64,000 nt of DNA from an uncultured Gammaproteobacteria bacterium (lineage in GTDB: Bacteria; Patescibacteriota; Microgenomatia; UBA1406; GWC2-37-13), in assembly GCA_964561915.1 (NCBI GenBank), contig CAZLQR010000005.1, forward strand, positions 49,263 to 113,262, read 5' to 3'. Shown here piece by piece: positions 695 to 53,686 of this stretch. Position numbers and translations under genes: made by a program. Each line of letters begins with the position of its first letter. Within the stretch, counting starts at the first letter, position 1. Below the pieces are notes generated by a model. It was given only the letters and a program-made list of their open reading frames with translations. It made no database searches and had not been told where the DNA came from.

Positions 695-1528
695 ATGAAC
701 ACCTTTTCCGTACCCCGGTACGTACTTTACCTTATTCTGGCAGCATCTATCGCAGTATTGTCCGCAGCTATATTCTCATATTTCACTACATCAACATTTG
801 TCGTATTTTGCAATGTGGGGCAAGGTGACGCGACGTATATGCGTATCAACAACCGTGTTGACGTACTTGTGGACGCGGGTCCGGATGACGCGATATTGGA
901 ATGTTTGGGCAAGTATATGCCCTTCTATGATAAAGCGATTGAATTAGCCTTCATTACGCACCCACATGTGGATCATTATGGCGGTTTCTCATCTCTCCTC
1001 GGGAAGTATTCTATCAACATGATGTTTGCCAGTGAGACTGAGTATGATTCGTCCCGCTATGACGGTCTTATTCGTAAATATCGTGAGAACGGAACACACG
1101 TCCAAACGTTTTATTCAGGTCAAATTTTACACATCTCTGATGCTCATTTTCGATCATTTTGGCCATCCAAATCCTATCTGGAGGCCTCAACACGCATCTC
1201 CGATCTCAACTCACTCTCGCACGTCATGCTTTTTACACAGAGAAATGTCTCAATAATGTTCACCGGAGACGTCACTCCGGAAATTCAGAAAAGATTGATA
1301 CAACAGCCCGTACCAAAAGTAACCATCCTCAAAATACCCCATCATGGCTCCACAGAGGGACTAATCGAAGATTTTTTGATTCTAGCAGATCCTACCTATT
1401 CAGTGATAAGCGTCGGGAAAGCAAACAGGTACGGACATCCCCATCGACAAACGCTTGAGATGCTTCGGAATCACGGGTACAAATATAAACGAACGGACGA
1501 AGACAATGATGTTATTTTTCGGTTTTGA
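695..1528 (+). CDS. comEC: ComEC C-terminal metallo-beta-lactamase-fold domain as a separate ORF
   Basis: N-terminal TM helix, then the MBL motif ITHPHVDHYGG and a later IPHHGS. Starts 1 nt after the preceding stop, in a different frame. Confidence 0.75.
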   Translation: MNTFSVPRYVLYLILAASIAVLSAAIFSYFTTSTFVVFCNVGQGDATYMRINNRVDVLVDAGPDDAILECLGKYMPFYDKAIELAFITHPHVDHYGGFSSLLGKYSINMMFASETEYDSSRYDGLIRKYRENGTHVQTFYSGQILHISDAHFRSFWPSKSYLEASTRISDLNSLSHVMLFTQRNVSIMFTGDVTPEIQKRLIQQPVPKVTILKIPHHGSTEGLIEDFLILADPTYSVISVGKANRYGHPHRQTLEMLRNHGYKYKRTDEDNDVIFRF

Positions 1529-1532
1529 TCCC

Positions 1533-2339
1533 TTACTGCGTTAGAATCTTGTAAATCTCCTTGTAAATCGAGAACGCCTCAAACCCGCTCCAGTTCTTGC
1601 CTACCAATTCCTCGGGCATGCCGGGATCCTGTTTGAGCACCGAGATATAGATTGATGTTATTTGTTTGAGTTTGTCCAATTTATTGGCTTCTTTTGACAA
1701 TATGAGATGCCAGCTTTTGAATGCATCCTGATAGCGCTTCCCGAGGGCGCTTTTTTTCCATACTTTCTCGATGAGTATCTCGCGGTCTCCTGCCACATAA
1801 TCAGCCTCAAACGCCTGGATATACTGCTCTTCTTCTTTGCCTTTCACAAGCGCGATTAACTCGTCGGTGACCGGGTGTGTCGTGATCCAAAACGACCTAT
1901 GCCACGGGCCCAATCCCCAACCAGCGACCTGACGGCGTAATTTATCTCTCATTTCGCGTTTCTTTTCTGGGATTTCGTATGATACGATCCTCCACTTGGC
2001 ATCCCACTTGTCGCGAAGGAATCTGAAATACGGGAATGTGAGGCTAAGCTCATGAAAACCCTTTTCTGTCAGACGGTATATTAATATTTCCGGATTGAAT
2101 TTATCCCCTTCCAACGCCCCTGTTGACACGTGATCGATAAATTGAGATTTGCTAAGTGTGTTGAGTGTTTGTCGCGTTTTCACATTGAGCGCTATATCGA
2201 ATATCGTCGAAAAAGTGTTATCTACTTTAACATCATCGAAGTTTTTGCCGGACGCAAGATATAATGCTACTAATATCTTGAGCCTGCGTTCTTTAATATC
2301 CATAAAGCTAAAAATAACAAACGAACTATTTGTTGTCAA
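1533..2339 (-). CDS. PaaX-like / Cas2-fold transcriptional regulator family protein
   Basis: WDAKWRIVSYEIPEKKREMRDKLRRQVAGWGLGP matches the PaaX-like core pattern common in CPR genomes. Start could instead be the internal Met at 2303. Confidence 0.55.
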   Translation of the reverse strand: MTTNSSFVIFSFMDIKERRLKILVALYLASGKNFDDVKVDNTFSTIFDIALNVKTRQTLNTLSKSQFIDHVSTGALEGDKFNPEILIYRLTEKGFHELSLTFPYFRFLRDKWDAKWRIVSYEIPEKKREMRDKLRRQVAGWGLGPWHRSFWITTHPVTDELIALVKGKEEEQYIQAFEADYVAGDREILIEKVWKKSALGKRYQDAFKSWHLILSKEANKLDKLKQITSIYISVLKQDPGMPEELVGKNWSGFEAFSIYKEIYKILTQ

Positions 2340-2942
2340 TTGGATTTTATAGAGCTCGCCATAGCCTCAATACTATGAACTACTACATAAATTAAGTTCG
2401 TCAAGTGCTTTTAATTAAAAAACAAAAATATAATATATTTATCTTAAAAAACGATATAGTATCAGCCCTGTGGAAGTATTCACTATATATTTAAATTCAC
2501 AATTGAATTTTATCCCTCCGTACAATTTTTGTCAGAAGATAAATAAATTAGCCTTAAATTAAGCTCATTAAATAATCTTTGTTTTTATCAATAATAAACT
2601 TCCTTTGCCAAGATGATCAAGGCTGCACATATAAAAATACTATAAAGTCATAAAGATAATATATTAAAGACGACTATATAAATCTCTCTTAATCAGCCTC
2701 AAAAAAAGATATTTTTATCATGATTACATTACTATCGTTCGTAATTAATAATCATTAAACACTTATATTGCAATATTTCTATACTATAAGTATATGCCTG
2801 TTTTACATGTATTTATCGTGGCTATTAATTACCGCATATATATAATTATATACGTTTATATTATTAATATGATATATGTTAGTTACAAGTATTATATTTA
2901 TTAAATGTATCATATTATATCATCATACATCATCTTATCAGG

Positions 2943-2972
2943 TTGACTCCTGTATTTAATATGGTATACAAT
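2943..2972 (+). promoter_or_regulatory. Candidate sigma70-type promoter of the 1262-aa gene
   Basis: TTGACT (2943-2948), 18-nt spacer, TACAAT (2967-2972). The ATG at 2981 is only 8 nt downstream, which implies a near-leaderless mRNA. Confidence 0.35.
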
Positions 2973-2980
2973 GTAAACGT

Positions 2981-5900
2981 ATGTCGGAAAGGTATAATCT
3001 TGATAATTTCGAGCTCGAATTCAAGAAATACATAGCTTCGGGAAATAAATCTCGAGATCCAAACACTATTAAATACTACGTTTCCGATGTCAGGATATTC
3101 ATCGATTGGCTTCTCTATGCCCAAAATCTTCAACTAACGCAAAACGATGGCATTGAATCAGTGTTACGTGCGCACCTCACTCCCACATCAGTCTTGGACT
3201 ACCGAAATTATTTACAAAACGCCGGCATACCTCAGTCGACAATTAACAGAAGACTTTCAAGTATTCGACAACTTTATGCATTTTGCACGTCAAAAAATAT
3301 TGTGATCGATAATTCACATTTACATGTGAAAAATCTGTATAAAAGAACCGTACGTAGGATTAAGGATCATTTACCAAGTCCGTCCCTATCAGATAAGCCC
3401 GGAATAGAAGAAAAAATCTTTAGCAAAGATGCAGATCATATGCCAGATATTTTACGTTTAGTCAGCGTTAAAGCGATAACCGAATATATGTCATTTTTAT
3501 TTGGAAATAATCGTAAAACGAAATCCTTCGGAAGACTTTTGGCTACCACCGTTATTGCCTCTACTACCTTCATCGCATTGATAATTGGGCTCAAAACGGT
3601 GGTATCCCGCCAGGTGACACCGTTATCCGAAACCCATGCGCAAGCAATAGGCCATGGAAGAGCTATTGCGTTTCAGGGCGTATTGACAGATAAACTTGGG
3701 AATAAAATTAATTATAAGACGAACGTACGATTTAGGATGTATTCCACTTCGTCCGGCGGCACAGCTCTCTACGATTCGGGGAGCTGTGCCGTGATTCCGG
3801 ACACTGCCGGCGCATTCAAAGTGACTTTGGGAGCGAGCGGATGCGGCAACCATATCCCGGAAAGCTTTTTTGAAGACAATGCCGCGCTGTATTTGGGCAT
3901 TAAGATAGGGAAAGACAAAGAAATCTCAACGCGGCAGCGTATCCCGAATACCGCTCTCGCTCAAAGCGCCCAATTCCTGCAGGGATTACCGGTGGGGACA
4001 TCAACATCATCGATACCGTTCATATCCGATGCGGGCATCATCAAGCTGACGAATGTATCCCCCGTCATCCGCTCCACTGCAGAAGTAGGCTCTCTTAAGC
4101 TCCAGAGTGCTTCGGAGCTCATTATGGAATCCGGAAAATCTTCGGACGTTAATATTGTGGCCGGTGAGAATGGCTCCATCCATTTCCGAACGAAAAATAA
4201 CGGTATTGACAATATGCTCATATCAAGCGATGGCAATGTGTCCGTCGGAGGGAGTACGCCCGGCTTATTCAAACTTGAAGTCGGTGGCTCACTCGGTCCA
4301 TCACTTGACAGTATTTATGATTTGGGATCATCAGCGAAAAATTGGAACACATTATATGTGAATAAAGTATGCTTCAATACCGTACTGGACTGTATTGAAG
4401 GCGGGTATTCAGATTACTGGGTTACCGGAGATGGGACGATAGCGCCGGTTGATGAAGCGAGCGATTTGCTGGTAGGATCAACTGCCACTGAATCTGCACA
4501 TATCAAATTTTCGGCATCTGCCGGCAACTCATCGTTCATCCGGAGCGGGTATTTCGGGATCGGCACCACCGCTCCGATCAGCGCCCTCCATGTGGAGGGC
4601 GCACTCACACTCACCGGCAATATTACTGATATAACAACTTCAAACAATGAGAATTTGACTTTGGCCGCACATGGCACCGGCTTCGTTGTCATCAATGACG
4701 CGGTGCGACTCGGTTCTGATTCAAAAGGTGTGTATGTAGATGGGAACGGAGTGCTTACCGACTTGGATGGGAGCCTTGTGATCGCCGATGATGTATATTT
4801 GGGGTCGGAATCCTACGGTATCAAAATATCAACGAACGGCGAAATTACCGATTCAGACGGTCTTGTCACGATTACCGACGATTTGTCGGTTGCCGGTAAT
4901 CTGACCGGAGGCACATCCGGTACGTCCGGAACCACTACGATTGATATCGGTGGCACCGGCACCGGCAATGCATTGTGTCACACGACTGCGGACGGTATTG
5001 ATAATGAAGGCATTGTGGACTGCACCTCCTCACCTACGGCGGATTTCGCGGAAATGTATCCTGTCGAAGTTGGTACCGGATACGGGGATGTTGTTGCGTT
5101 AAGTACAGAAGTGGTGACCACTTCAGACGGGCGCAATATCCGCAAACTGGTGCGCAATAACGACGCGTACAACACAAAACTCATTGGCATCGTGTCGGAC
5201 AATTACGGCGATTTCATAAGCGTGGGACACAATGTGGCGCGCAAGGACAATCCCATGCCGGTCGCACTCAAGGGTCGCGTGCCAGTCAGAGTCGATCCCG
5301 CTTCCTCCCCGTTTCACGCGGGAGATTTCCTCACCGGATCGTCTCGTCCCGGCCGCGCTATCAAAGCGGAGTTGCCTGGCATGATGATCGGACAGGCGCT
5401 TGAAGACTGGACTCCCCAATCACAGAAAGAAACAATCATGGTTTTTGTGCAGACCGCCTATGCAGATCCAAGTCCGGCCCGCACTTCATGGTTCTCATTT
5501 GCACGTGATGCGTTGAAAACCGTATCAGGCTCACTGTTTGTGGAGAATGCGATCGAATCACCCGTCGTCCGTACGGATCAGCTCATCGCGGACAATATCA
5601 CCTCGGAATACATCTATAGTCCCGTCGTTGAGTCCGATACTGTGAAACCCGGTACGATTCGTGCCCGGGTACATGAGGATATCAGTATTGCGCTTGATGA
5701 CAACAAAAAAACAGCATCGGGTGAGGGCGATCTTGCCAGACTCGTCATCAAAGGTCTGCAAGATCGCCCCGTCGCCACAATCGATGCCGAAGGAAATATT
5801 GCCGCCGCAGGCGGCATAGCGGCCAAAGACGCCACCATCTCCGGCACTTTGGCCGCAAAAGAGGTCGTCGCGGACAATATCACTGCGCTTCAGGATCGTC

Positions 5901-6769
5901 TCGAACGGACCGTACGCAAAACAGAGGACATTGACCGACTCGGGAGCGATATGAACGCAATCCAACAGTCGCTTTCCCACATCCGTGACGAACAGCTTGC
6001 CAGCGTCTCCGCACCGCTTGCCGGTGTGCCGGACTCATTCTCGAACCCTGTTATCGCCGACGGCCTGTACTCCAATCTTGTCGTGAGCGGAACCGCCAAT
6101 ATCTTCCAATTGTCCGTGTATGACACAGTATCTGCGCTTGCCGATGAGCTCAAACTCAATGCTCTCGCGTCGATCAATTTCCTGGATGGCGCAGCCGTGC
6201 TCACGAAGGATGGCACACTCACGCTCAACGGTGCACTTATTGCGAAATCAGGCATCAGAACCGGAGATATACGGCCGGCAGAAGACGGTACGGATATTCG
6301 CGCCCATCTCACCGCAAACGACTCCGGTAACAGCGCGCTCAAAATACAAAACCAGCTTGGGGCTACCGTTGCTCAGGTCGATGCAAGCGGCTCGGCGATG
6401 TTTCGGAGTATCACTCTGGGAGACACAAATATAGCGACGGAGTCGGCGATCATCGCCGCAGCCGATAATTTCGCGGAAAGCGGACAATTCACTCCTGCGA
6501 TCAACTCCAAGAAAGCGGCGGCGGGGTCGGCGATCATCCCGCCGCAGGAGAAGGAGATAATCATTTATAATGAAGCGGTCAAAGAGTCGTCGCTCATTTA
6601 CCTGACACCGGCAGGCAACGACGTTGACAGTCCCGTATCCGTCGCGGAGAAGGTGGCATGTCCGTCAACTGACGGTAATACAGTCAAACCATGCAAACCG
6701 TATTTCAAAGTCGCAACCCAAGAGGCAAATGATACACATATTGCGTTCAATTGGCTCATAATCAACTAA
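2981..6769 (+). CDS. Large membrane-anchored surface protein: N-terminal phage-integrase SAM-like domain, TM helix, tail-fibre-like extracellular region
   Basis: - aa 10-110 fit the integrase N-terminal SAM-like pattern (TIKYYVSDVRIFIDWLL ... STINRRLSSIRQLYAFC).
- One TM helix (LLATTVIASTTFIALIIGL).
- Then G/S/T-rich repeats such as GYFGIGTTAPISALHVEG and GNVSVGGSTPGLFKLEVGG, typical of tail-fibre-like proteins.
- No recombinase catalytic domain. Confidence 0.7.
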   Translation: MSERYNLDNFELEFKKYIASGNKSRDPNTIKYYVSDVRIFIDWLLYAQNLQLTQNDGIESVLRAHLTPTSVLDYRNYLQNAGIPQSTINRRLSSIRQLYAFCTSKNIVIDNSHLHVKNLYKRTVRRIKDHLPSPSLSDKPGIEEKIFSKDADHMPDILRLVSVKAITEYMSFLFGNNRKTKSFGRLLATTVIASTTFIALIIGLKTVVSRQVTPLSETHAQAIGHGRAIAFQGVLTDKLGNKINYKTNVRFRMYSTSSGGTALYDSGSCAVIPDTAGAFKVTLGASGCGNHIPESFFEDNAALYLGIKIGKDKEISTRQRIPNTALAQSAQFLQGLPVGTSTSSIPFISDAGIIKLTNVSPVIRSTAEVGSLKLQSASELIMESGKSSDVNIVAGENGSIHFRTKNNGIDNMLISSDGNVSVGGSTPGLFKLEVGGSLGPSLDSIYDLGSSAKNWNTLYVNKVCFNTVLDCIEGGYSDYWVTGDGTIAPVDEASDLLVGSTATESAHIKFSASAGNSSFIRSGYFGIGTTAPISALHVEGALTLTGNITDITTSNNENLTLAAHGTGFVVINDAVRLGSDSKGVYVDGNGVLTDLDGSLVIADDVYLGSESYGIKISTNGEITDSDGLVTITDDLSVAGNLTGGTSGTSGTTTIDIGGTGTGNALCHTTADGIDNEGIVDCTSSPTADFAEMYPVEVGTGYGDVVALSTEVVTTSDGRNIRKLVRNNDAYNTKLIGIVSDNYGDFISVGHNVARKDNPMPVALKGRVPVRVDPASSPFHAGDFLTGSSRPGRAIKAELPGMMIGQALEDWTPQSQKETIMVFVQTAYADPSPARTSWFSFARDALKTVSGSLFVENAIESPVVRTDQLIADNITSEYIYSPVVESDTVKPGTIRARVHEDISIALDDNKKTASGEGDLARLVIKGLQDRPVATIDAEGNIAAAGGIAAKDATISGTLAAKEVVADNITALQDRLERTVRKTEDIDRLGSDMNAIQQSLSHIRDEQLASVSAPLAGVPDSFSNPVIADGLYSNLVVSGTANIFQLSVYDTVSALADELKLNALASINFLDGAAVLTKDGTLTLNGALIAKSGIRTGDIRPAEDGTDIRAHLTANDSGNSALKIQNQLGATVAQVDASGSAMFRSITLGDTNIATESAIIAAADNFAESGQFTPAINSKKAAAGSAIIPPQEKEIIIYNEAVKESSLIYLTPAGNDVDSPVSVAEKVACPSTDGNTVKPCKPYFKVATQEANDTHIAFNWLIIN

Positions 6770-6770
6770 G

Positions 6771-8678
6771 ATGCATACGATGAACCAAAAAATCATAACA
6801 ATCGAATATTGGCTTGTTTCAGCGGTATTGTTCGTACTCCCGCTTTTCTTCCTTCCGAACACGTTCGAATTTTTTGCGACGAATAAGATGTATCTGGCAG
6901 CCTATTCCTCGCTGGTCATACTCATGGTGGCCACGTTCCGATTCTTCATCAACAGACAGTTTGTATGGGAAAAAAGCATCCTGGATTTTCCTGTCATCTC
7001 ATTCTTAACCGCCGGCATAGTTTCCACATATTTTGCCTCGGAAAATCGTATCCAATCGCTCCTGAATCCTCATTCCGGACTCATCATGCTTGTGTCTCTT
7101 GTTGTACTGTATTTTTATTTATCCCGCCAGGAGTGGGAAAAAAGGTCGATCAACCTGATCGGCATATTGATATACAGTTCGTGTGCTCTCGCAGCAGCTT
7201 CCGTGTTGGGATTCTTCGGCGTATTCAAAGTCGCGGGAGCACTCACAGGGCTTCAGTTCCTTCAGAATCCCTATTTCACTCCCGCGGGCACGCTCTATGA
7301 TCTGATCGCCGTTCTCGGCTATTTCCTGATATACATGATCCTCAATATCGTTTACTCCGAGAGGGCCGATGTGGCAGTCCCGAATAGCACTATCATCACG
7401 ACGCTCGTCATGAGTATCGGATTCGCATTTGCCCTCATCATGTTTTTCATGATGCTCGCCAAGCCTTCTGTCCAGACCGAATTTGCAGGGTACGCGGTTT
7501 CCCTCAAGGCTGCGGGGTATGCGCTTACCAAACCTGCGAGCTTCCTGATTGGGGTCGGCATAGACGATTTCTCGACTGCGTACACGGCAGTGAAGGACGC
7601 ACGGCTCAATCTGGGGTCGCTATGGCAGGCGGACAGCTTCAATCTCTCCCGCTCTGCCCTGCTTCAGATCATGGTGGAAACAGGTATCTTTGGAATCGTG
7701 AGCTTCCTAAGTATTTTCACGGCGCTTTTTTATCGCATCGCGCGTTCGGAATATCCGCACAAACTCGGGCCTCTGATCCTTGCGGCGTTCGTATTCATCC
7801 TATTCCTCATATTCCCGTTGTCACCGGTCTTGTATTTCCTCGCCTTTATTACGTTTGCGTTTACATCGTGCGACTTGGCTGCATATGAGAAGGCTCCGAA
7901 ACGGTTTGTGGTACGGTTTCATAAAAAGAAACACATCCCTGTGATATATGTTATCGTGTTGGCAAGTTTCAGTATTCTCATCGCTTTCGGGTTCCTCCTT
8001 GGAAGGTCATATTTCGCGGATGCGGCATTCCGCGCGTCAATTGACTCCGCAGACATAAACAACGCACACGAACTGTATGAAAACCAGAGACAATCAGTCG
8101 TCCTCAATCCGTTCATCGAACAATACCGTATACAGCTCGCCAAAACGAATGTCATGATCGCCAACGAAGTCGCTGCAGCGGTGCAGGACACAGGAAAAGA
8201 GGCGACTGCCGATCAGAAACGGCTCATCGCGGAGGCGACTCAAGCTGCCATCGCACAGGCAAAGGCAGCGGTCACACTCAATCCCTCCAAGGCTACCAAT
8301 TGGGAAATGCTCGGCACGATCTATGCTAATGTAAGCGGAATCGTTGAGCAGTCTTCCGACTGGGCGGTGACTTCATATTCCCGCGCAATCAAGCTCGATC
8401 CCACCAATGCGCGGTATCACTCCAAGCTCGGAAGTGTGTTTTACCTGGCTGGACGATATTCGGATGCGATCAACGCATTCATACGCTCGACCGAACTCAA
8501 ACCTGATTGGGCATCGGCATGGTTTAACCTGGCGTGGTCGTATCACAAGAATAAAAATACCGAGAGCGCGATAAAAGCGATGACGCGCGCGTCACAGCTG
8601 ATAGACAGGGTGGCTTCACCGGACGATTACCGACAGGCGATGGCGGACCTGGAAACATTCCGGATGCAGGAGAATTAG
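6771..8678 (+). CDS. Polytopic O-antigen-ligase (Wzy_C)-like membrane protein with C-terminal TPR repeats
   Basis: About 12 hydrophobic helices, then TPR-like repeats (AVTLNPSKATNWEMLGTIY, AIKLDPTNARYHSKLGSVF, STELKPDWASAWFNLAWSY). Starts 1 nt after the upstream stop. Confidence 0.6.
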   Translation: MHTMNQKIITIEYWLVSAVLFVLPLFFLPNTFEFFATNKMYLAAYSSLVILMVATFRFFINRQFVWEKSILDFPVISFLTAGIVSTYFASENRIQSLLNPHSGLIMLVSLVVLYFYLSRQEWEKRSINLIGILIYSSCALAAASVLGFFGVFKVAGALTGLQFLQNPYFTPAGTLYDLIAVLGYFLIYMILNIVYSERADVAVPNSTIITTLVMSIGFAFALIMFFMMLAKPSVQTEFAGYAVSLKAAGYALTKPASFLIGVGIDDFSTAYTAVKDARLNLGSLWQADSFNLSRSALLQIMVETGIFGIVSFLSIFTALFYRIARSEYPHKLGPLILAAFVFILFLIFPLSPVLYFLAFITFAFTSCDLAAYEKAPKRFVVRFHKKKHIPVIYVIVLASFSILIAFGFLLGRSYFADAAFRASIDSADINNAHELYENQRQSVVLNPFIEQYRIQLAKTNVMIANEVAAAVQDTGKEATADQKRLIAEATQAAIAQAKAAVTLNPSKATNWEMLGTIYANVSGIVEQSSDWAVTSYSRAIKLDPTNARYHSKLGSVFYLAGRYSDAINAFIRSTELKPDWASAWFNLAWSYHKNKNTESAIKAMTRASQLIDRVASPDDYRQAMADLETFRMQEN

Positions 8679-8679
8679 A

Positions 8680-8705
8680 GGGCTGTTTTGAGCTCAAAAC
8701 AGCCC
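8680..8705. terminator. Perfect 26-bp palindrome (hairpin) after the Wzy/TPR gene
   Basis: GGGCTGTTTTGAG/CTCAAAACAGCCC begins 2 nt after the stop codon. No clear U-tract follows, so terminator function is uncertain. Confidence 0.35.
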
Positions 8706-8712
8706 CTCCGAT

Positions 8713-9795
8713 GTGGTAAAATACCGTATGAATTCCGTCCGGCAGTTCCTCATGTTTTTGCAGGATTACATACGGAGCCGCGCCTACATATTCGGGAAAA
8801 AGTTCGAGAACGTCAAAGATCTCATCGTCGCCATTCTGGTGATCAAACGGGGCAAATATTCGACGTCGTTTTTGAATACTTCCTTTTTGTTCCTCGTGTT
8901 TGCCGCGATAATCGGCGGACCGATTATCGCGGAGAACAATCCATTCGCATCCGAGATTTCGCAAGAGGATCAGGCAAATCAGAATCTCGTGGTGACATAT
9001 AATCCGTATGAAAATGCCCTCGGCACCGTCATATCCGCCAAACCACGTGACAAGACCGTCGAATACCAGGTGCTCGGCGGCGACACGCTTGCCTCGATTG
9101 CGAAGAAATTCGATGTTTCGGTGGATACGATCAAGTGGGCAAACGATCTGAAAGGAGAGACTATCAAGCCGAACCAGAGCCTCAAGATACCGCCGGGAAC
9201 GGGAATCGTGCACAAAGTCGTATCCGGCGACAATATCTACACAATCGCCAAGAAGTACAAGGTAGACACACAGAATATCGTGAATTTCCCGTTCAACGAT
9301 TTTGCCGATCTCGATACATTCGCACTCACGCCGGGACAATCGCTATTCATACCAAACGGTACGATCCAGCAGGCGCGGCCTGCGGCCGCGCCCGGCGGAT
9401 ATTACACCGGCCCCATCACAGCTGGCGCCCGGGGCAGCTCCAACTTCATATGGCCGACATCCGGTTCAATCAGCCAGTACCCGATCTGGTACCACATGGC
9501 GCTCGACATCCAGAATCCAAGCGCTCCGCCGGTCATCGCATCCGACACCGGCACGGTCACGTATGCTGGTTGTATAGCCTGGGGATACGGGTGTCACGTC
9601 ATTATGGACCACGGCAATGGCTATCAGACTTTGTACGGCCATCTTCAGCGGATCGATGTGGCTCCCGGCCAGTCGGTCGGACAGGGCGGGCAATTGGGAC
9701 AAATGGGCTCGACGGGGAGATCTACCGGAACGCATCTTCATTTCGAGGTCCGCTCCGGTGGTGCGTTACTTAATCCACAAAACTTCCTGAAGTAA
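8713..9795 (+). CDS. LysM-domain peptidase M23 (peptidoglycan endopeptidase)
   Basis: N-terminal TM helix. Two LysM repeats (YQVLGGDTLASIAKKF.., HKVVSGDNIYTIAKKY..). M23 motifs HMALD and HLHFEVR. GTG start at 8713; alternative ATG at 8728. Confidence 0.85.
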   Translation: MVKYRMNSVRQFLMFLQDYIRSRAYIFGKKFENVKDLIVAILVIKRGKYSTSFLNTSFLFLVFAAIIGGPIIAENNPFASEISQEDQANQNLVVTYNPYENALGTVISAKPRDKTVEYQVLGGDTLASIAKKFDVSVDTIKWANDLKGETIKPNQSLKIPPGTGIVHKVVSGDNIYTIAKKYKVDTQNIVNFPFNDFADLDTFALTPGQSLFIPNGTIQQARPAAAPGGYYTGPITAGARGSSNFIWPTSGSISQYPIWYHMALDIQNPSAPPVIASDTGTVTYAGCIAWGYGCHVIMDHGNGYQTLYGHLQRIDVAPGQSVGQGGQLGQMGSTGRSTGTHLHFEVRSGGALLNPQNFLK

Positions 9796-49254: not shown

Positions 49255-49340
49255 GTTGAAATACTATATACATGTTATAATCAAAATCTGTTTACGTAAT
49301 TTATATCATGTTAATTTATATACTATCATCTGCATAAACG

Positions 49341-50243
49341 ATGGCTATTCCCAATTATCCACAATTTAAAAAGCTCGATATTGGCGACAAAATATATATT
49401 GAAAGGTATACATCTAATTATGACCCATATTCCGATTTTAATTTTACTAGTCTATGGAGCTATGATACTCTTTCTGGAATTGAGATATCTTACCTCTATG
49501 ATAATCTCGTTGTTAAGTTTACAGATTATTTAACCAGTCAGCATTTTTATTCATTTATTGGAACAAATAGGGTTGAAAACACTATTATTGATCTACTCTC
49601 CCGACAACCCCAGGTATTAAAGCTCGTTCCTCAAATTGTAATTGACAGCGCCAACACTGATTTACACACAAATCTTTTAATTAAAGAAGATGATGATAAT
49701 CACGACTATATTCTCTCTACAAAAGATCTTTCTTTACTTAGTGGAAATAAACTCAGAGGCAAGAGGAACTTTTTAAAACGATTTAAAAACTTGTATCCCA
49801 ATCATTATTGGAAATTGATAAATATTTCAGATTTAAAAGTGCAAGATAGGATCTTAAAATTATTCTATATTTGGGAAGTAAAACAAAATCGAACCAGAGA
49901 GGAAACTCAGATTGAGTTGACTGCGTTAACAAGATTGTTAAAAATCGCAAGTGTGTCTGAATTGGTACCAATTGGCATATATGTCGACGATGAACTTATA
50001 GCCTTCTCAATAAATGAAGTAATTGGTAATTATGCAATAATCCATTTCGAAAAAGCAAATATTGACTTTATTGGATCATTTCAATATCTTAAACATAGAA
50101 CAGGCCATCATTTTTATAACTTGAAAATACCCTACATTAACTATGAACAAGATCTTGGCATTGATGGTCTTCGGAAAGCTAAGAAATCCTGGAAACCAAT
50201 AAAATATCTGAAAAAATATATAATATCTCATAAACAAAAATGA
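49341..50243 (+). CDS. DUF2156 (MprF C-terminal / aminoacyl-tRNA-dependent transferase-like, GNAT fold) protein
   Basis: The N-terminus FKKLDIGDKIYIERYTSNYDPYSDFNFTSLWSYD matches the standalone ~300-aa DUF2156 pattern as I recall it. Confidence 0.5.
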   Translation: MAIPNYPQFKKLDIGDKIYIERYTSNYDPYSDFNFTSLWSYDTLSGIEISYLYDNLVVKFTDYLTSQHFYSFIGTNRVENTIIDLLSRQPQVLKLVPQIVIDSANTDLHTNLLIKEDDDNHDYILSTKDLSLLSGNKLRGKRNFLKRFKNLYPNHYWKLINISDLKVQDRILKLFYIWEVKQNRTREETQIELTALTRLLKIASVSELVPIGIYVDDELIAFSINEVIGNYAIIHFEKANIDFIGSFQYLKHRTGHHFYNLKIPYINYEQDLGIDGLRKAKKSWKPIKYLKKYIISHKQK

Positions 50244-51768: not shown

Positions 51769-52253
51769 TCCTGGGCTTTATATATTGCAATCGAAAGAGC
51801 ACATGCAGGATGGCGCAATATGGAGGTGGTTGATATGGCGCTATTTAGCTTCTTTTCATCAAATGTAACTTTTCTAAATTTGCACATATCGCGTAATGTA
51901 TTGTCGATTCGCTGTTTGAGCACATAACGCACTTCTTCTTCGCTATCGCTTTCCGTTTCATGCTCGACGAAGAATCCTCTTCCGTCGTCCAGTTGATACC
52001 ATCCGATACCCGCTCCAATCGTCCGGCCTATCTTATCGCTTCTTTGTTCTGCTTTCACCACATAGAGTCTGTGCCCAAAATCCTCAGAAGGAGTTTTGTA
52101 TTTATCAATTCGGGAAAGCTGAGACCCGGGCGGGATAATTGATGAGAGGGTAATTATGTTGTAGTTGGAGACACCGGCGTTTTGCAATGCGTGATCAAAT
52201 GCTGAGAGTAAGGTGCTCCCCTCACCCTTTGAGGTAATGATTTGTATTTGCAT
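51762..52253 (-). CDS. pdaD: Pyruvoyl-dependent arginine decarboxylase
   Basis: TSKGEGSTLLSAFDHALQNAGVSNYNIITLSSIIPP, including the self-cleavage Ser-Ser site. About 160 aa, as expected. Confidence 0.85.
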   Translation of the reverse strand: MQIQIITSKGEGSTLLSAFDHALQNAGVSNYNIITLSSIIPPGSQLSRIDKYKTPSEDFGHRLYVVKAEQRSDKIGRTIGAGIGWYQLDDGRGFFVEHETESDSEEEVRYVLKQRIDNTLRDMCKFRKVTFDEKKLNSAISTTSILRHPACALSIAIYKAQEW

Positions 52254-52348
52254 CGTTTTCTGATTAGAAAATCTGTTTTCATTATATCACAACAAATTTC
52301 AATCTTCATTTGTGCAGAGGGGTTTAATGTAAAAATTGATAAATGGAA

Positions 52349-53686
52349 TTAATAAAGTCTTAATAAAAGAAAAAATTTATATACTAAATATTTTAGCAGT
52401 GGGGCTAACGTATTAAACAAATTAGTGTGTTTTCTATTCATATAAATTGAAGAATTAACGACAGATAATTTGGACGTTATCAAGGGCCTGATTGATATTA
52501 CAGCAATGGTCATTACGACATGTGAAATTAAATATAGAAAATCATTATATCCCCCATTTGAATACGTGCTATTTCTCACAGAAATTACAAATATATAGTC
52601 AGTAAAAAAATGACATGCAAATGCAAACAAAAATAATACGTTACGTCGCTTTATGTTATTAGAAAGAAATTGTGAAAATACAAGAGTGCTAATTGAAATA
52701 AATAAAGTAGTAATCTCAATAAAAGGATATAAAAAATCAAAAATTAATTTTATTTGTTGATCAAATGTATATTTAGATAAATGAATATAATTAACCGAAA
52801 TTATAAATAAGAGAACTAGTGGGGATAAAAGTAATAAGTTCTTTTTCCTAGTAAATATATTACCGAGAAATGGAATATTCGCGATCAACAAATACCATGA
52901 TGCGATGAAATAGCATATTGTAGTCGAAAAATATCCCAAATCTGCAACAGATGGATAAGGTACTTGAATTCCTATTAAATTATAAAAAGTCCATATTTGT
53001 ATTCCAAACCATTGAAATAATAAACCTAAGGATAGATACTTCATTATCTTCAGCCATACTATACTCCGCGGATATCTATTTTTTGACGTATTGAATTTAC
53101 AATATAAATAATATAAAAAGCTTGAGAAAGAGATTACGCTGAACGAAACCCCCCAAATATATGCCTCAACGGAATTATAGAGGTTCAAGGATTGAATTCT
53201 AAAATTCCAAATTACATGAAAAATAAATATCAAAATTATCGATATTAAATATCTTGATTGAAATATTTTGATTGGTGCTAGCTCCGATTCGGTATAAGAT
53301 TTATTAAAATTGATTAGATTAACAGAATTTACGCTCCTTCTTTTCGCATAAATATTTTTTTTGTTCAAATCTAAGAGAGTAGTACCCAAGTTATTAATTT
53401 CCTGCGCGTTCAGATCGCACAAACCCACTGACTCGAGAAGACCGTTTGCTTCTTCGAGACTGACAATACCTTTGCGTTTCACGAAGAGTCTGATCAATGC
53501 GAGCAATGTGCGGCGGTCACGGGGGATGCGCTGGCCGTTTTGCCAGCGCGTAAACAGACTATTCTCATAGATCATACCCTCCTCCGCAAAGAGGTCTCCA
53601 AACCGAGATAAGGTATCGATCTGTGATCTCAATCGATACCTTTTGAAAAGTCCGGCAAAGTTCAGAGTGTCCTGATGCTCTGTCAT
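52349..53686 (-). CDS. Membrane-bound regulator: N-terminal HTH-like cytoplasmic domain fused to the same polytopic module as 48394..49254
   Basis: aa 1-110 are soluble and helix-rich (LFKRYRLRSQIDTLSRFGDLFAEEG..). aa 140-445 are paralogous to the 286-aa membrane protein (PYPSVADLGYF, NGGYNDFLY). Confidence 0.55.
   Translation of the reverse strand: MTEHQDTLNFAGLFKRYRLRSQIDTLSRFGDLFAEEGMIYENSLFTRWQNGQRIPRDRRTLLALIRLFVKRKGIVSLEEANGLLESVGLCDLNAQEINNLGTTLLDLNKKNIYAKRRSVNSVNLINFNKSYTESELAPIKIFQSRYLISIILIFIFHVIWNFRIQSLNLYNSVEAYIWGVSFSVISFSSFLYYLYCKFNTSKNRYPRSIVWLKIMKYLSLGLLFQWFGIQIWTFYNLIGIQVPYPSVADLGYFSTTICYFIASWYLLIANIPFLGNIFTRKKNLLLLSPLVLLFIISVNYIHLSKYTFDQQIKLIFDFLYPFIEITTLFISISTLVFSQFLSNNIKRRNVLFLFAFACHFFTDYIFVISVRNSTYSNGGYNDFLYLISHVVMTIAVISIRPLITSKLSVVNSSIYMNRKHTNLFNTLAPLLKYLVYKFFLLLRLY

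Follow-up and report, generated by a model that had tools for sequence, protein, structure and literature searches.

We consider a gene that joins a recombinase-type domain to parts of phage tail-fibre type, found in a stretch of 64,000 nucleotides (hereafter the window) of contig CAZLQR010000005.1. The host is an ultra-small bacterium belonging to the candidate phyla radiation (CPR), Roizmanbacteria-like, and the gene is a single open reading frame (ORF P0001, 2981..6769, +), confirmed by ORF listing and translation. On balance, we read its product as a type-II (N-in, C-out) single-pass membrane protein and a phage-tail-fibre-like surface fibre. The first 115 residues would lie in the cytoplasm as an Xer-type core-binding (SAM-like) domain without the catalytic domain, and about 1050 residues would lie outside the cell as a fibre assembled from phage tail-fibre parts, in the order membrane-proximal domain, variable shaft, G2/cement-like trimerising auto-chaperone, coiled coil and C-terminal beta-sandwich. 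The architecture itself, its conservation, whether fused or as two adjacent ORFs, the homology of its parts and the geometry of the promoter are computational results; full-text literature searches found no paper describing a design of SAM-like domain, transmembrane (TM) helix and fibre. The parts of the protein are as follows.

2981..6769, + strand: fibre gene (ORF P0001), 1262 aa, with SAM-like domain, TM helix and fibre ectodomain
2981..3325, + strand: tyrosine-recombinase core-binding (SAM-like) domain, predicted to be cytoplasmic, aa 1-115 (Pfam PF02899)
3446..3505, + strand: juxtamembrane helix DILRLVSVKAITEYMSFLFG, aa 156-175
3536..3592, + strand: single TM helix, aa 186-204, the only hydrophobic window (Kyte-Doolittle 2.19)
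3623..4015, + strand: conserved membrane-proximal ectodomain module (AIAFQGVLTD...), aa 215-345
4016..4870, + strand: variable fibre shaft, aa 346-630, with DLGSSAKNWNTLYV at aa 447-460 and GIGTTAP at aa 526-532
5039..5470, + strand: Peptidase_G2/phage-cement-like beta domain, aa 687-830, with D688 (5042-5044) and E691 (5051-5053)
5873..5986, + strand: long helix, probable coiled coil, aa 965-1002 (helix 335-372 of the AlphaFold2 model of aa 631-1262)
6458..6766, + strand: conserved C-terminal beta-sandwich ending in FNWLIIN, aa 1160-1262 (AlphaFold2 confidence mostly ~90)

The amino terminus places the protein in a known domain family. A preliminary description, made from the sequence alone, had likened the first ~110 residues to the SAM-like domain of tyrosine recombinases and had seen no catalytic domain behind it, and both points hold. 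In a Pfam scan of the whole 1262-aa protein (E<=0.1) the only family match is Phage_int_SAM_1 (PF02899) at aa 21-104, with 30.6 bits against a cut-off of 22.3; the N-terminus searched alone reaches 38.9 bits (E 1e-9), and the family is matched by all 25 of the aligned family members (best E 1.6e-16). The same scan gives no match to the catalytic domain PF00589, with its R-H-R-Y active site, anywhere in the protein. The NCBIfam models of XerS, XerD and XerC are matched in their N-terminal parts only (up to ~167; ~97 for XerD/XerC), with scores of 26-32 bits against cut-offs of 267-335, and the PHROGs result is 'integrase' only, obtained via the SAM region. In the AlphaFold2 model of aa 1-220 (24 homologues), 88 residues have a predicted local distance difference test (pLDDT) score >=90, all of them in a helical bundle at aa 5-104. 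The best Foldseek matches of this model are the N-domains of Cre, XerD, archaeal Xer and lambda Int and the stand-alone 3nrw (TM-score 0.70 on the target), with probabilities of 0.96-1.0 and yet weak E-values of 0.03-0.3. Profiles and model together indicate that aa 1-115 is a bona fide member of the SAM-like core-binding family, the same N-terminal domain (PF02899) as in XerC, XerD and XerS, here with no catalytic domain and tethered to a membrane. Without a catalytic domain the protein cannot recombine DNA. Two further SAM-bearing frames of ordinary length (290 and 325 aa) are present in the genome, whose normal recombinases are thus encoded apart from this gene. The label 'site-specific integrase', which NCBI gives to one homologue, is wrong for such proteins, as the domain lacks its catalytic part and is membrane-tethered.

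The topology is read from several features that agree with each other. There is only one hydrophobic segment, which confirms the one TM helix of the preliminary description, and other family members likewise have one TM helix at aa 144-207. The protein has no N-terminal signal peptide, and a folded part of 185 aa precedes the only TM helix; Lys and Arg number 4 in the 15 aa preceding this helix versus 1 in those following; and the ectodomain has eight Cys in four close pairs (269/288, 464/471, 666/681 and 1227/1238), with one Cys on the cytoplasmic side. Because of these features, and because the fibre modules lie beyond the TM helix, we infer an N-in, C-out orientation.

Beyond the TM helix the ectodomain extends for 1055 aa and is Gly/Ser/Thr/Ala-rich (38% G+S+T+A, versus 22% in the cytoplasmic part). 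The tail-fibre-like character that had been suspected for this region is borne out by this composition and by the shaft motifs DLGSSxxxWxxLY and GIGTTAP, which recur many times in the homologues P0002, P0004 and P0005. The shaft is the least conserved part among relatives. Its match to the Bdellovibrio fibre chain 8ojn_C is marginal (E 0.98) and not significant. Near the C-terminus, the helix at aa 965-1002 is modelled with moderate to low confidence (pLDDT block means ~44-70). The region aa 855-1262 keeps 37-46% identity across genera, and an ending of the FNWLIIN type is also present in P0003; a Foldseek search with the C-terminal beta-sandwich gave no convincing fold match in the PDB.

The membrane-proximal module occurs widely. 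A query with aa 1-345 matches 3458 representative proteins (E<=0.001); among those listed, many alignments span the membrane-proximal module only, and the module is present in 45 of 301 genomes drawn evenly from the phylum. Outside the class, in most of the genomes sampled, the module ('FQGRLTD') stands right after a short signal anchor and has no SAM domain (L114, L116, L117, L121-L125). As the module follows a plain signal anchor in other classes, these sequences indicate that the SAM tail was added to the fibre within one lineage. The layout recalls the MAT fibres of Bdellovibrio bacteriovorus (8ojn), which are likewise cell-encoded and phage-like and likewise carried by a bacterium living on other bacteria. 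These have a conserved ~130-aa beta-rich domain after the membrane-targeting segment, a variable shaft or tip and, in part of the family, an autoproteolytic chaperone domain (PMC10769870). The protein considered here also has a conserved module of ~130 aa directly after its membrane segment, and the motif G-I/V-G-T-T-x-P, a weak match, is common to both; the likeness drawn here is one of layout. In MATs the signal peptide is cleaved off and nothing lies in the cytoplasm, whereas a predicted cytoplasmic part of 185 aa precedes the only TM helix here, and the MAT chaperone is of the S74 type whereas ours is of the G2 type. Peptidase_S74 is found in 2 of the 25 aligned family members, in place of or alongside the G2-type domain. 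One family member matches Intein_splicing (1.8e-7).

The segment that the preliminary description had compared with Peptidase_G2 and intramolecular-chaperone-type domains is supported by both profile and fold searches. For the region aa 631-840 we collect 81 homologous segments and align 24, in all of which Asp688 and Glu691 are invariant. PF11962 (Peptidase_G2) is matched by 4 of the 24 (best 4.2e-7), and XM1_gp53, a minor capsid/cement family, by 8. Searched against the PDB, the family profile matches gp12, the pre-neck appendage (tailspike) of Bacillus phage phi29 (6qz9_A, E 0.0099), and also 3gqh, the 163-residue released fragment of gp12 that begins DFAEYFES. The AlphaFold2 model of aa 631-1262 (32 sequences) has pLDDT >90 over aa 687-830. 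By Foldseek this modelled domain resembles trimeric phage cement and decoration proteins as well as pre-mature gp12 (3suc, E 1.8e-3, probability 1.0), and in BFVD a large number of phage fibre proteins, one of them named 'preneck appendage protein' (E 2e-9). Thus aa 687-830 share sequence and fold with the C-terminal auto-chaperone domain of gp12 (PF11962; 3suc, 3gqh, 6qz9), in which D692-F-A-E aligns with D688-x-x-E691 of our protein. Mature gp12 is modelled by cryo-EM only to residue 691 (PMC6542822), so that Asp688 aligns with D692, the first residue past the self-cleavage site of gp12, and self-cleavage at Ala687/Asp688 is possible. Unlike that of gp12, the domain is internal here, with 430 residues following it (about 310-560 in relatives), instead of being C-terminal and released, and it belongs to a membrane-anchored protein of a cell instead of a virion component. 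Since G2- and cement-type modules are trimeric in phages, the ectodomain would form a trimer, and the protein would act as a surface or host-contact fibre.

The distribution of the family shows that the fusion is not peculiar to this genome. A search for related loci with this single protein gave none, and a word-indexed homologue search gave 4 matches only. By other searches, matches are found in 38 of 41 related genomes, and in those of the same genus the SAM-region and fibre matches fall within one frame of 972-1004 aa. By phmmer, at least 87 of the best 150 representative clusters listed contain the SAM domain together with the membrane-proximal module; the rest of the 150, judged by eye, have a SAM-like or half-SAM-like start followed by a TM helix. 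One conserved peptide pattern yields 151 species-level loci, of which 80 were kept, mostly from metagenome-assembled genomes of Candidatus Roizmanbacteria and other Microgenomates. Where the arrangement was scored, the frame is fused in 36 of 75 species loci, and in the other 39 the SAM module is a separate ORF of 143-218 aa directly upstream of the TM-fibre ORF. The same architecture is thus present in other CPR genomes, and the possibility, raised at the outset, that the reading frame is a chimera is ruled out, as the fused frame recurs in same-genus genomes and in dozens of species.

In the split loci, the gap between the two ORFs ranges from -142 to 902 bp, some pairs overlap by 8-14 nt, and no separate promoter is seen before the fibre ORF. 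The small ORF ends in an 'EEYRxFL...' helix pair (for example L015, 2773-3387/3587-19231, and L017, 5786-6232/2485-5799; 39 in total), and the fibre ORF opens with a 'KRRxSSVDKFLxWA' helix pair ahead of its TM helix. The tail and the head look like two halves of a second SAM-like domain across two polypeptides; the head reaches a Pfam E-value of only 0.07. In the fused protein, the juxtamembrane helix (aa 156-174 in the AlphaFold2 model, pLDDT 62-81) is similar to the 'EEYRxFL' tail found where the SAM module is an ORF of its own. The idea that this helix is what remains of a second SAM domain has no significant support, and a search for such a domain in aa 116-220 gave no match.

We turn to the DNA in front of the gene, which holds the following elements.

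2340..2980, no strand: AT-rich non-coding spacer of 641 bp, GC 0.242, separating the fibre gene from the divergent PaaX-like gene
2828..2836, - strand: GCGGTAA-type box in inverted orientation (ATTACCGCA on the + strand), at -152 from the ATG
2916..2922, + strand: TATATCA box, 27 nt upstream of the -35, a positional consensus of high information content
2943..2972, + strand: sigma-70-type promoter TTGACT-18-TACAAT from a promoter scan, with TACAAT at 2967-2972

The promoter keeps a strict position relative to the gene: in 55 of 81 related loci, among them the one in this window, TTGAC begins exactly 38 nt ahead of the ATG. As the -10 ends only 8 nt before the ATG (2981), the promoter geometry makes a leaderless mRNA of the fibre gene probable. 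The combination TATCA-N20-TTGAC is found at the SAM-gene promoter in 57 of 90 loci (60 after start-codon correction) and elsewhere at one site in 810 kb, and the TATATCA box is absent at pilin, protease and LexA-like promoters that have the same -35 context; the pattern of occurrence thus indicates a box specific to the SAM gene. Farther upstream, GCGGTAA lies on the gene strand in 45 of 86 loci, mostly at -126 to -149 from the ATG, and is inverted in this genome and three of the 86. The 12-mer ATACCTCTTGAC, which belongs to the -35 context, is common to 46 of 86 species, where the background reaches 7 at most. Another candidate, AATACCTCTTGAC as a SAM-gene-specific operator, was rejected, for it also stands before pilin, subtilisin-like and LexA-like genes (1-3 per genome, in 63 of 121 genomes). 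The extended -35 context AATACCTCTTGACA is seen before the type IV pilin genes L103 (G012:C3) and L112 (G101:C9), the subtilisin-like L102 and the LexA-like L105; in the genes bearing it the ATG follows at 39-61 nt, and the two short offsets (39 and 42 nt) suggest leaderless or near-leaderless mRNAs elsewhere in the order. Among public sequencing runs none of RNA contains the locus, and three DNA runs contain 5-7% of the sampled words.

The spacer had been judged by eye to be more AT-rich than the rest of the window. A GC scan of the 1.77-Mb assembly in 87,085 overlapping 640-bp windows (mean GC 0.522, standard deviation 0.064) places the lowest-GC window of the whole genome (0.2375) at this spacer. 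Its longest stop-free stretch is 50 aa and its repeats are low-complexity AT matches only, in agreement with the earlier view that it holds no ORF and no regular repeats. A search for a hidden RNA gene gave no Rfam match (E<=1) and no tRNA. As to curved DNA, for which a profile had been proposed, no signature emerged: the highest AA/TT periodicity, at 11.0 bp (z 3.8), does not exceed the 95th percentile of shuffle maxima. In 84 of 84 measurable loci the nearest upstream ORF is divergent, at a distance of 268-1127 bp (median 561), and across these loci GC in the gap drops by 14 points on average. Far from being particular to this genome, the AT-rich spacer is a trait conserved across the gene family, and it carries a conserved promoter.

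What does the cytoplasmic tail do? Of the roles considered, we tentatively favour one as the most likely, namely that the tail binds double-stranded DNA from the membrane. The residues of the domain that are invariant in the family are Y5, N6, Y33, S35, D36, R38, F40, W43, T87, R90 and R91; among the basic ones Arg38, Arg90/Arg91 and Arg96, situated in two helices, are invariant or nearly so, and the helices in which the invariant residues cluster are presumably the counterparts of the DNA-contacting helices of Cre and XerD. The target would probably be the TATATCA/AT-rich region of the gene's own promoter, and transcription would in that case be linked to the production or the state of the fibre. 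E. coli FliZ is a precedent, being a core-binding domain without a catalytic domain that binds promoters sequence-specifically (PMC3367168). FliZ is soluble and unrelated to fibres, and the likeness is one of use within a shared domain family; the family considered here has the same core-binding-only content, in membrane-tethered form or, in the 39 split loci, as a separate and presumably soluble ORF.

Two further kinds of protein are instructive for the arrangement. The ToxR/TcpP/CadC-type regulators have a cytoplasmic N-terminal DNA-binding domain, one TM helix and an extracytoplasmic domain, and their domain order resembles that of our protein in its predicted topology. They use an OmpR-type winged helix, with demonstrated promoter binding, and small sensor domains, whereas here the N-terminal domain is SAM-like. 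In the eukaryotic MyRF, which is a trimer, a DNA-binding domain occurs together with a phage-tailspike chaperone/self-cleavage domain and a TM helix (PMC8326128); it is comparable in parts and not in layout, as the DNA-binding-type and G2-type domains here would lie on opposite sides of the membrane.

Several observations weigh against this picture of a DNA-binding tail on a fibre. The conserved residues of the SAM-like domain coincide with the general Pfam consensus and could be structural, which would weaken the case for DNA binding. The same fibre family works without a SAM tail in other classes of Patescibacteria, making the tail an accessory. In many family members the flanking-charge bias that enters the topology is weak. 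When the G2-like segment of this protein is searched by itself, it stays below the Pfam threshold and has no match, so the homology to G2 rests on the family members and their profile, and the 430 residues beyond this domain, unlike in gp12, make cleavage and release uncertain. In the promoter, the -35 context AATACCTCTTGACA is generic, preceding pilin, protease and LexA-like genes too, and the TATATCA box could instead be bound by the PaaX-like regulator encoded next to it, or act as an UP-like element.

The strongest alternative, less likely in our estimate than DNA binding, is that the SAM-like domain no longer binds DNA and has become a protein-protein or assembly module, which might, for example, cluster the inner end of the fibre or dock it to a partner in the cytoplasm or membrane, or aid the membrane insertion of so long an ectodomain. 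The domain is fast-evolving (30-36% identity even inside the genus), fibres with the same membrane-proximal domain manage with a plain signal anchor in other classes, and the complementary SAM halves seen in the split loci would amount to a protein-protein contact. This reading has to contend with the fact that the basic residues of the two helices with which recombinases contact DNA (R38, R90, R91 and R96) are the ones kept invariant, that a clear PF02899 match is kept in every aligned member, and that FliZ, the only characterised catalytic-domain-free relative found, binds DNA (PMC3367168); in addition, the half-SAM match is statistically weak.

A bolder version of the DNA-binding reading, which we consider rather improbable as a whole, makes the protein a transmembrane coupling device of episymbiotic Microgenomates. 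In one polypeptide or in two pieces, a trimeric, phage-derived and possibly self-processing host-contact fibre would be wired by one helix per chain to Xer-derived DNA-binding domains that read the TATATCA/AT-rich region of their own leaderless operon. If this were true, fibre assembly, load or host contact would feed back on transcription, or would pin the locus to the contact site, and the signalling principle would be one not described in bacteria.

The remaining alternatives involve the neighbours of the gene.

695..1528, + strand: ComEC metallo-beta-lactamase (MBL) part (TIGR00361 ComEC_Rec2, 6.4e-29, positions 433-661 of 663)
1533..2339, - strand: divergent PaaX-like regulator gene (PaaX_M 2.4e-20, PaaX_C; TIGR02277 9.3e-16, below cut-off)
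6771..8678, + strand: downstream gene (membrane/TPR protein), 1 nt past the fibre stop, its long N-terminal part without family match and its C-terminal part with TPR repeats
8713..9795, + strand: LysM and Peptidase_M23 cell-wall hydrolase (Pfam 5.1e-29 and 1.1e-18)

The position of the gene beside comEC, pointed out in the preliminary description, is confirmed by the ComEC MBL part at 695-1528, and it invites the idea that the fibre belongs to a DNA-uptake apparatus whose tail handles or tethers DNA at the host contact. The ComEC MBL part is conserved beside the PaaX-like gene, two genes upstream of the fibre gene, in a neighbourhood kept in most loci, and dependence on nucleic acids taken up from outside is generally assumed for CPR bacteria. 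We nevertheless regard this role as quite unlikely. The comEC gene lies beyond a divergent regulator gene, and in many relatives it is ~5-6 kb off behind three secreted-protein genes; the DNA bound by core-binding domains is duplex, that delivered by ComEC single-stranded; and no pilus gene or other com gene is adjacent in the part of the window examined.

Less probable still is that the spacer is an invertible or recombining phase-variation switch, at which the SAM domain guides the Xer-type recombinases of the cell. The genome does contain the two frames of SAM-plus-catalytic length (290 and 325 aa), and the inverted GCGGTAA box could be taken as a trace of inversion. The inverted repeats around the promoter, however, are neither long nor well matched, the best of them (71-93%) being low-complexity AT, and the orientation and 38-nt spacing of the promoter are constant in the 55 of 81 loci.

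A last possibility is an artefact or relic: mis-assembly or a frameshift would have fused a truncated integrase gene with a fibre gene, or the gene would be a prophage tail-fibre gene in decay. It is already contradicted. The separate ORFs of the split loci, some of which share 8-14 nt in the manner of a frameshift, and the NCBI integrase name on a homologue speak for it, and against it stand the open frames of 972-1004 aa in the same genus and the fused frame in at least 36 loci of different species, a split form that recurs with identical geometry in the independent genomes G025 and G029, the lack of any catalytic-domain remnant, the conserved promoter, and a chromosomal synteny of ComEC-MBL, PaaX-like, fibre and membrane/TPR genes with no phage genes nearby.

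As for what the family means, CPR bacteria (Patescibacteria) account for a large part of the diversity of bacteria, those in culture live attached to other microbes, and to our knowledge the molecules by which they make contact are hardly known. The SAM-fibre family is a concrete candidate for a host-contact fibre: it is abundant in Microgenomates, its gene is often the largest of a ~1-Mb genome, and the promoter of this gene is among the best conserved in these genomes. Correcting the label 'integrase', which a member bears in at least one database record, removes false calls of mobile elements. If the tail does bind DNA, a bacterial surface fibre would be coupled directly to the chromosome, and the family would join FliZ as a case in which a core-binding domain has been put to new use without the enzyme part. 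The exact 38-nt spacing between promoter and ATG makes leaderless translation in this lineage directly testable.

Downstream, the surface operon of the preliminary description stands in part. The TPR gene, which follows the fibre gene in every locus where the end of the fibre gene is seen and would probably be co-transcribed with it, and the LysM-M23 gene, syntenic in several relatives, are as described. The identification of the TPR gene as 'Wzy' is weakly supported and was set aside: the gene has no Pfam match to it, and one ortholog only reaches Wzy_C at E 0.008, below cut-off. Directly behind the TPR stop, and ahead of the LysM-M23 GTG, lies a perfect 26-nt palindrome (GGGCTGTTTTGAGCTCAAAACAGCCC, 8680-8705) with no T-run after it; inside the operon it could serve for attenuation or as a processing hairpin.

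Upstream, the PaaX-like gene precedes the SAM gene in most loci, either adjoining or ~4.6 kb off. In many relatives the interval holds three genes (~490, 340 and 300 aa) with hydrophobic, signal-like N-termini (for example L025 1595-5005, L044 1519-5067 and L091 1427-4832), along with a divergent ORF of ~137-167 aa whose N-terminus is hydrophobic where read; this window has none of these four genes. By its length the 4.6-kb interval suggested an rRNA operon, but Rfam detects none in it, and it consists of these secreted-protein genes and the small membrane ORF.

The assembly is 1.77 Mb in size with 52% GC, and is 96.7% complete and 1.07% contaminated (CheckM-type figures), while five genomes of the same genus measure 0.7-0.9 Mb and their loci have 40-48% GC. 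The gap in size and GC marks either an unusually large member or a bin or genus assignment that deserves a check. Two more of the five lowest-GC windows of the genome lie at ~49,259-49,900 and 52,239-52,880 of the window (C5:98521 and C5:101501; GC 0.29 and 0.25). These AT-rich islands were considered as comparable spacers and set aside, being apparently mostly coding (contig ORFs 98603-99505, +; 101024-101515, -; 101611-102948, -), and they may be acquired genes.

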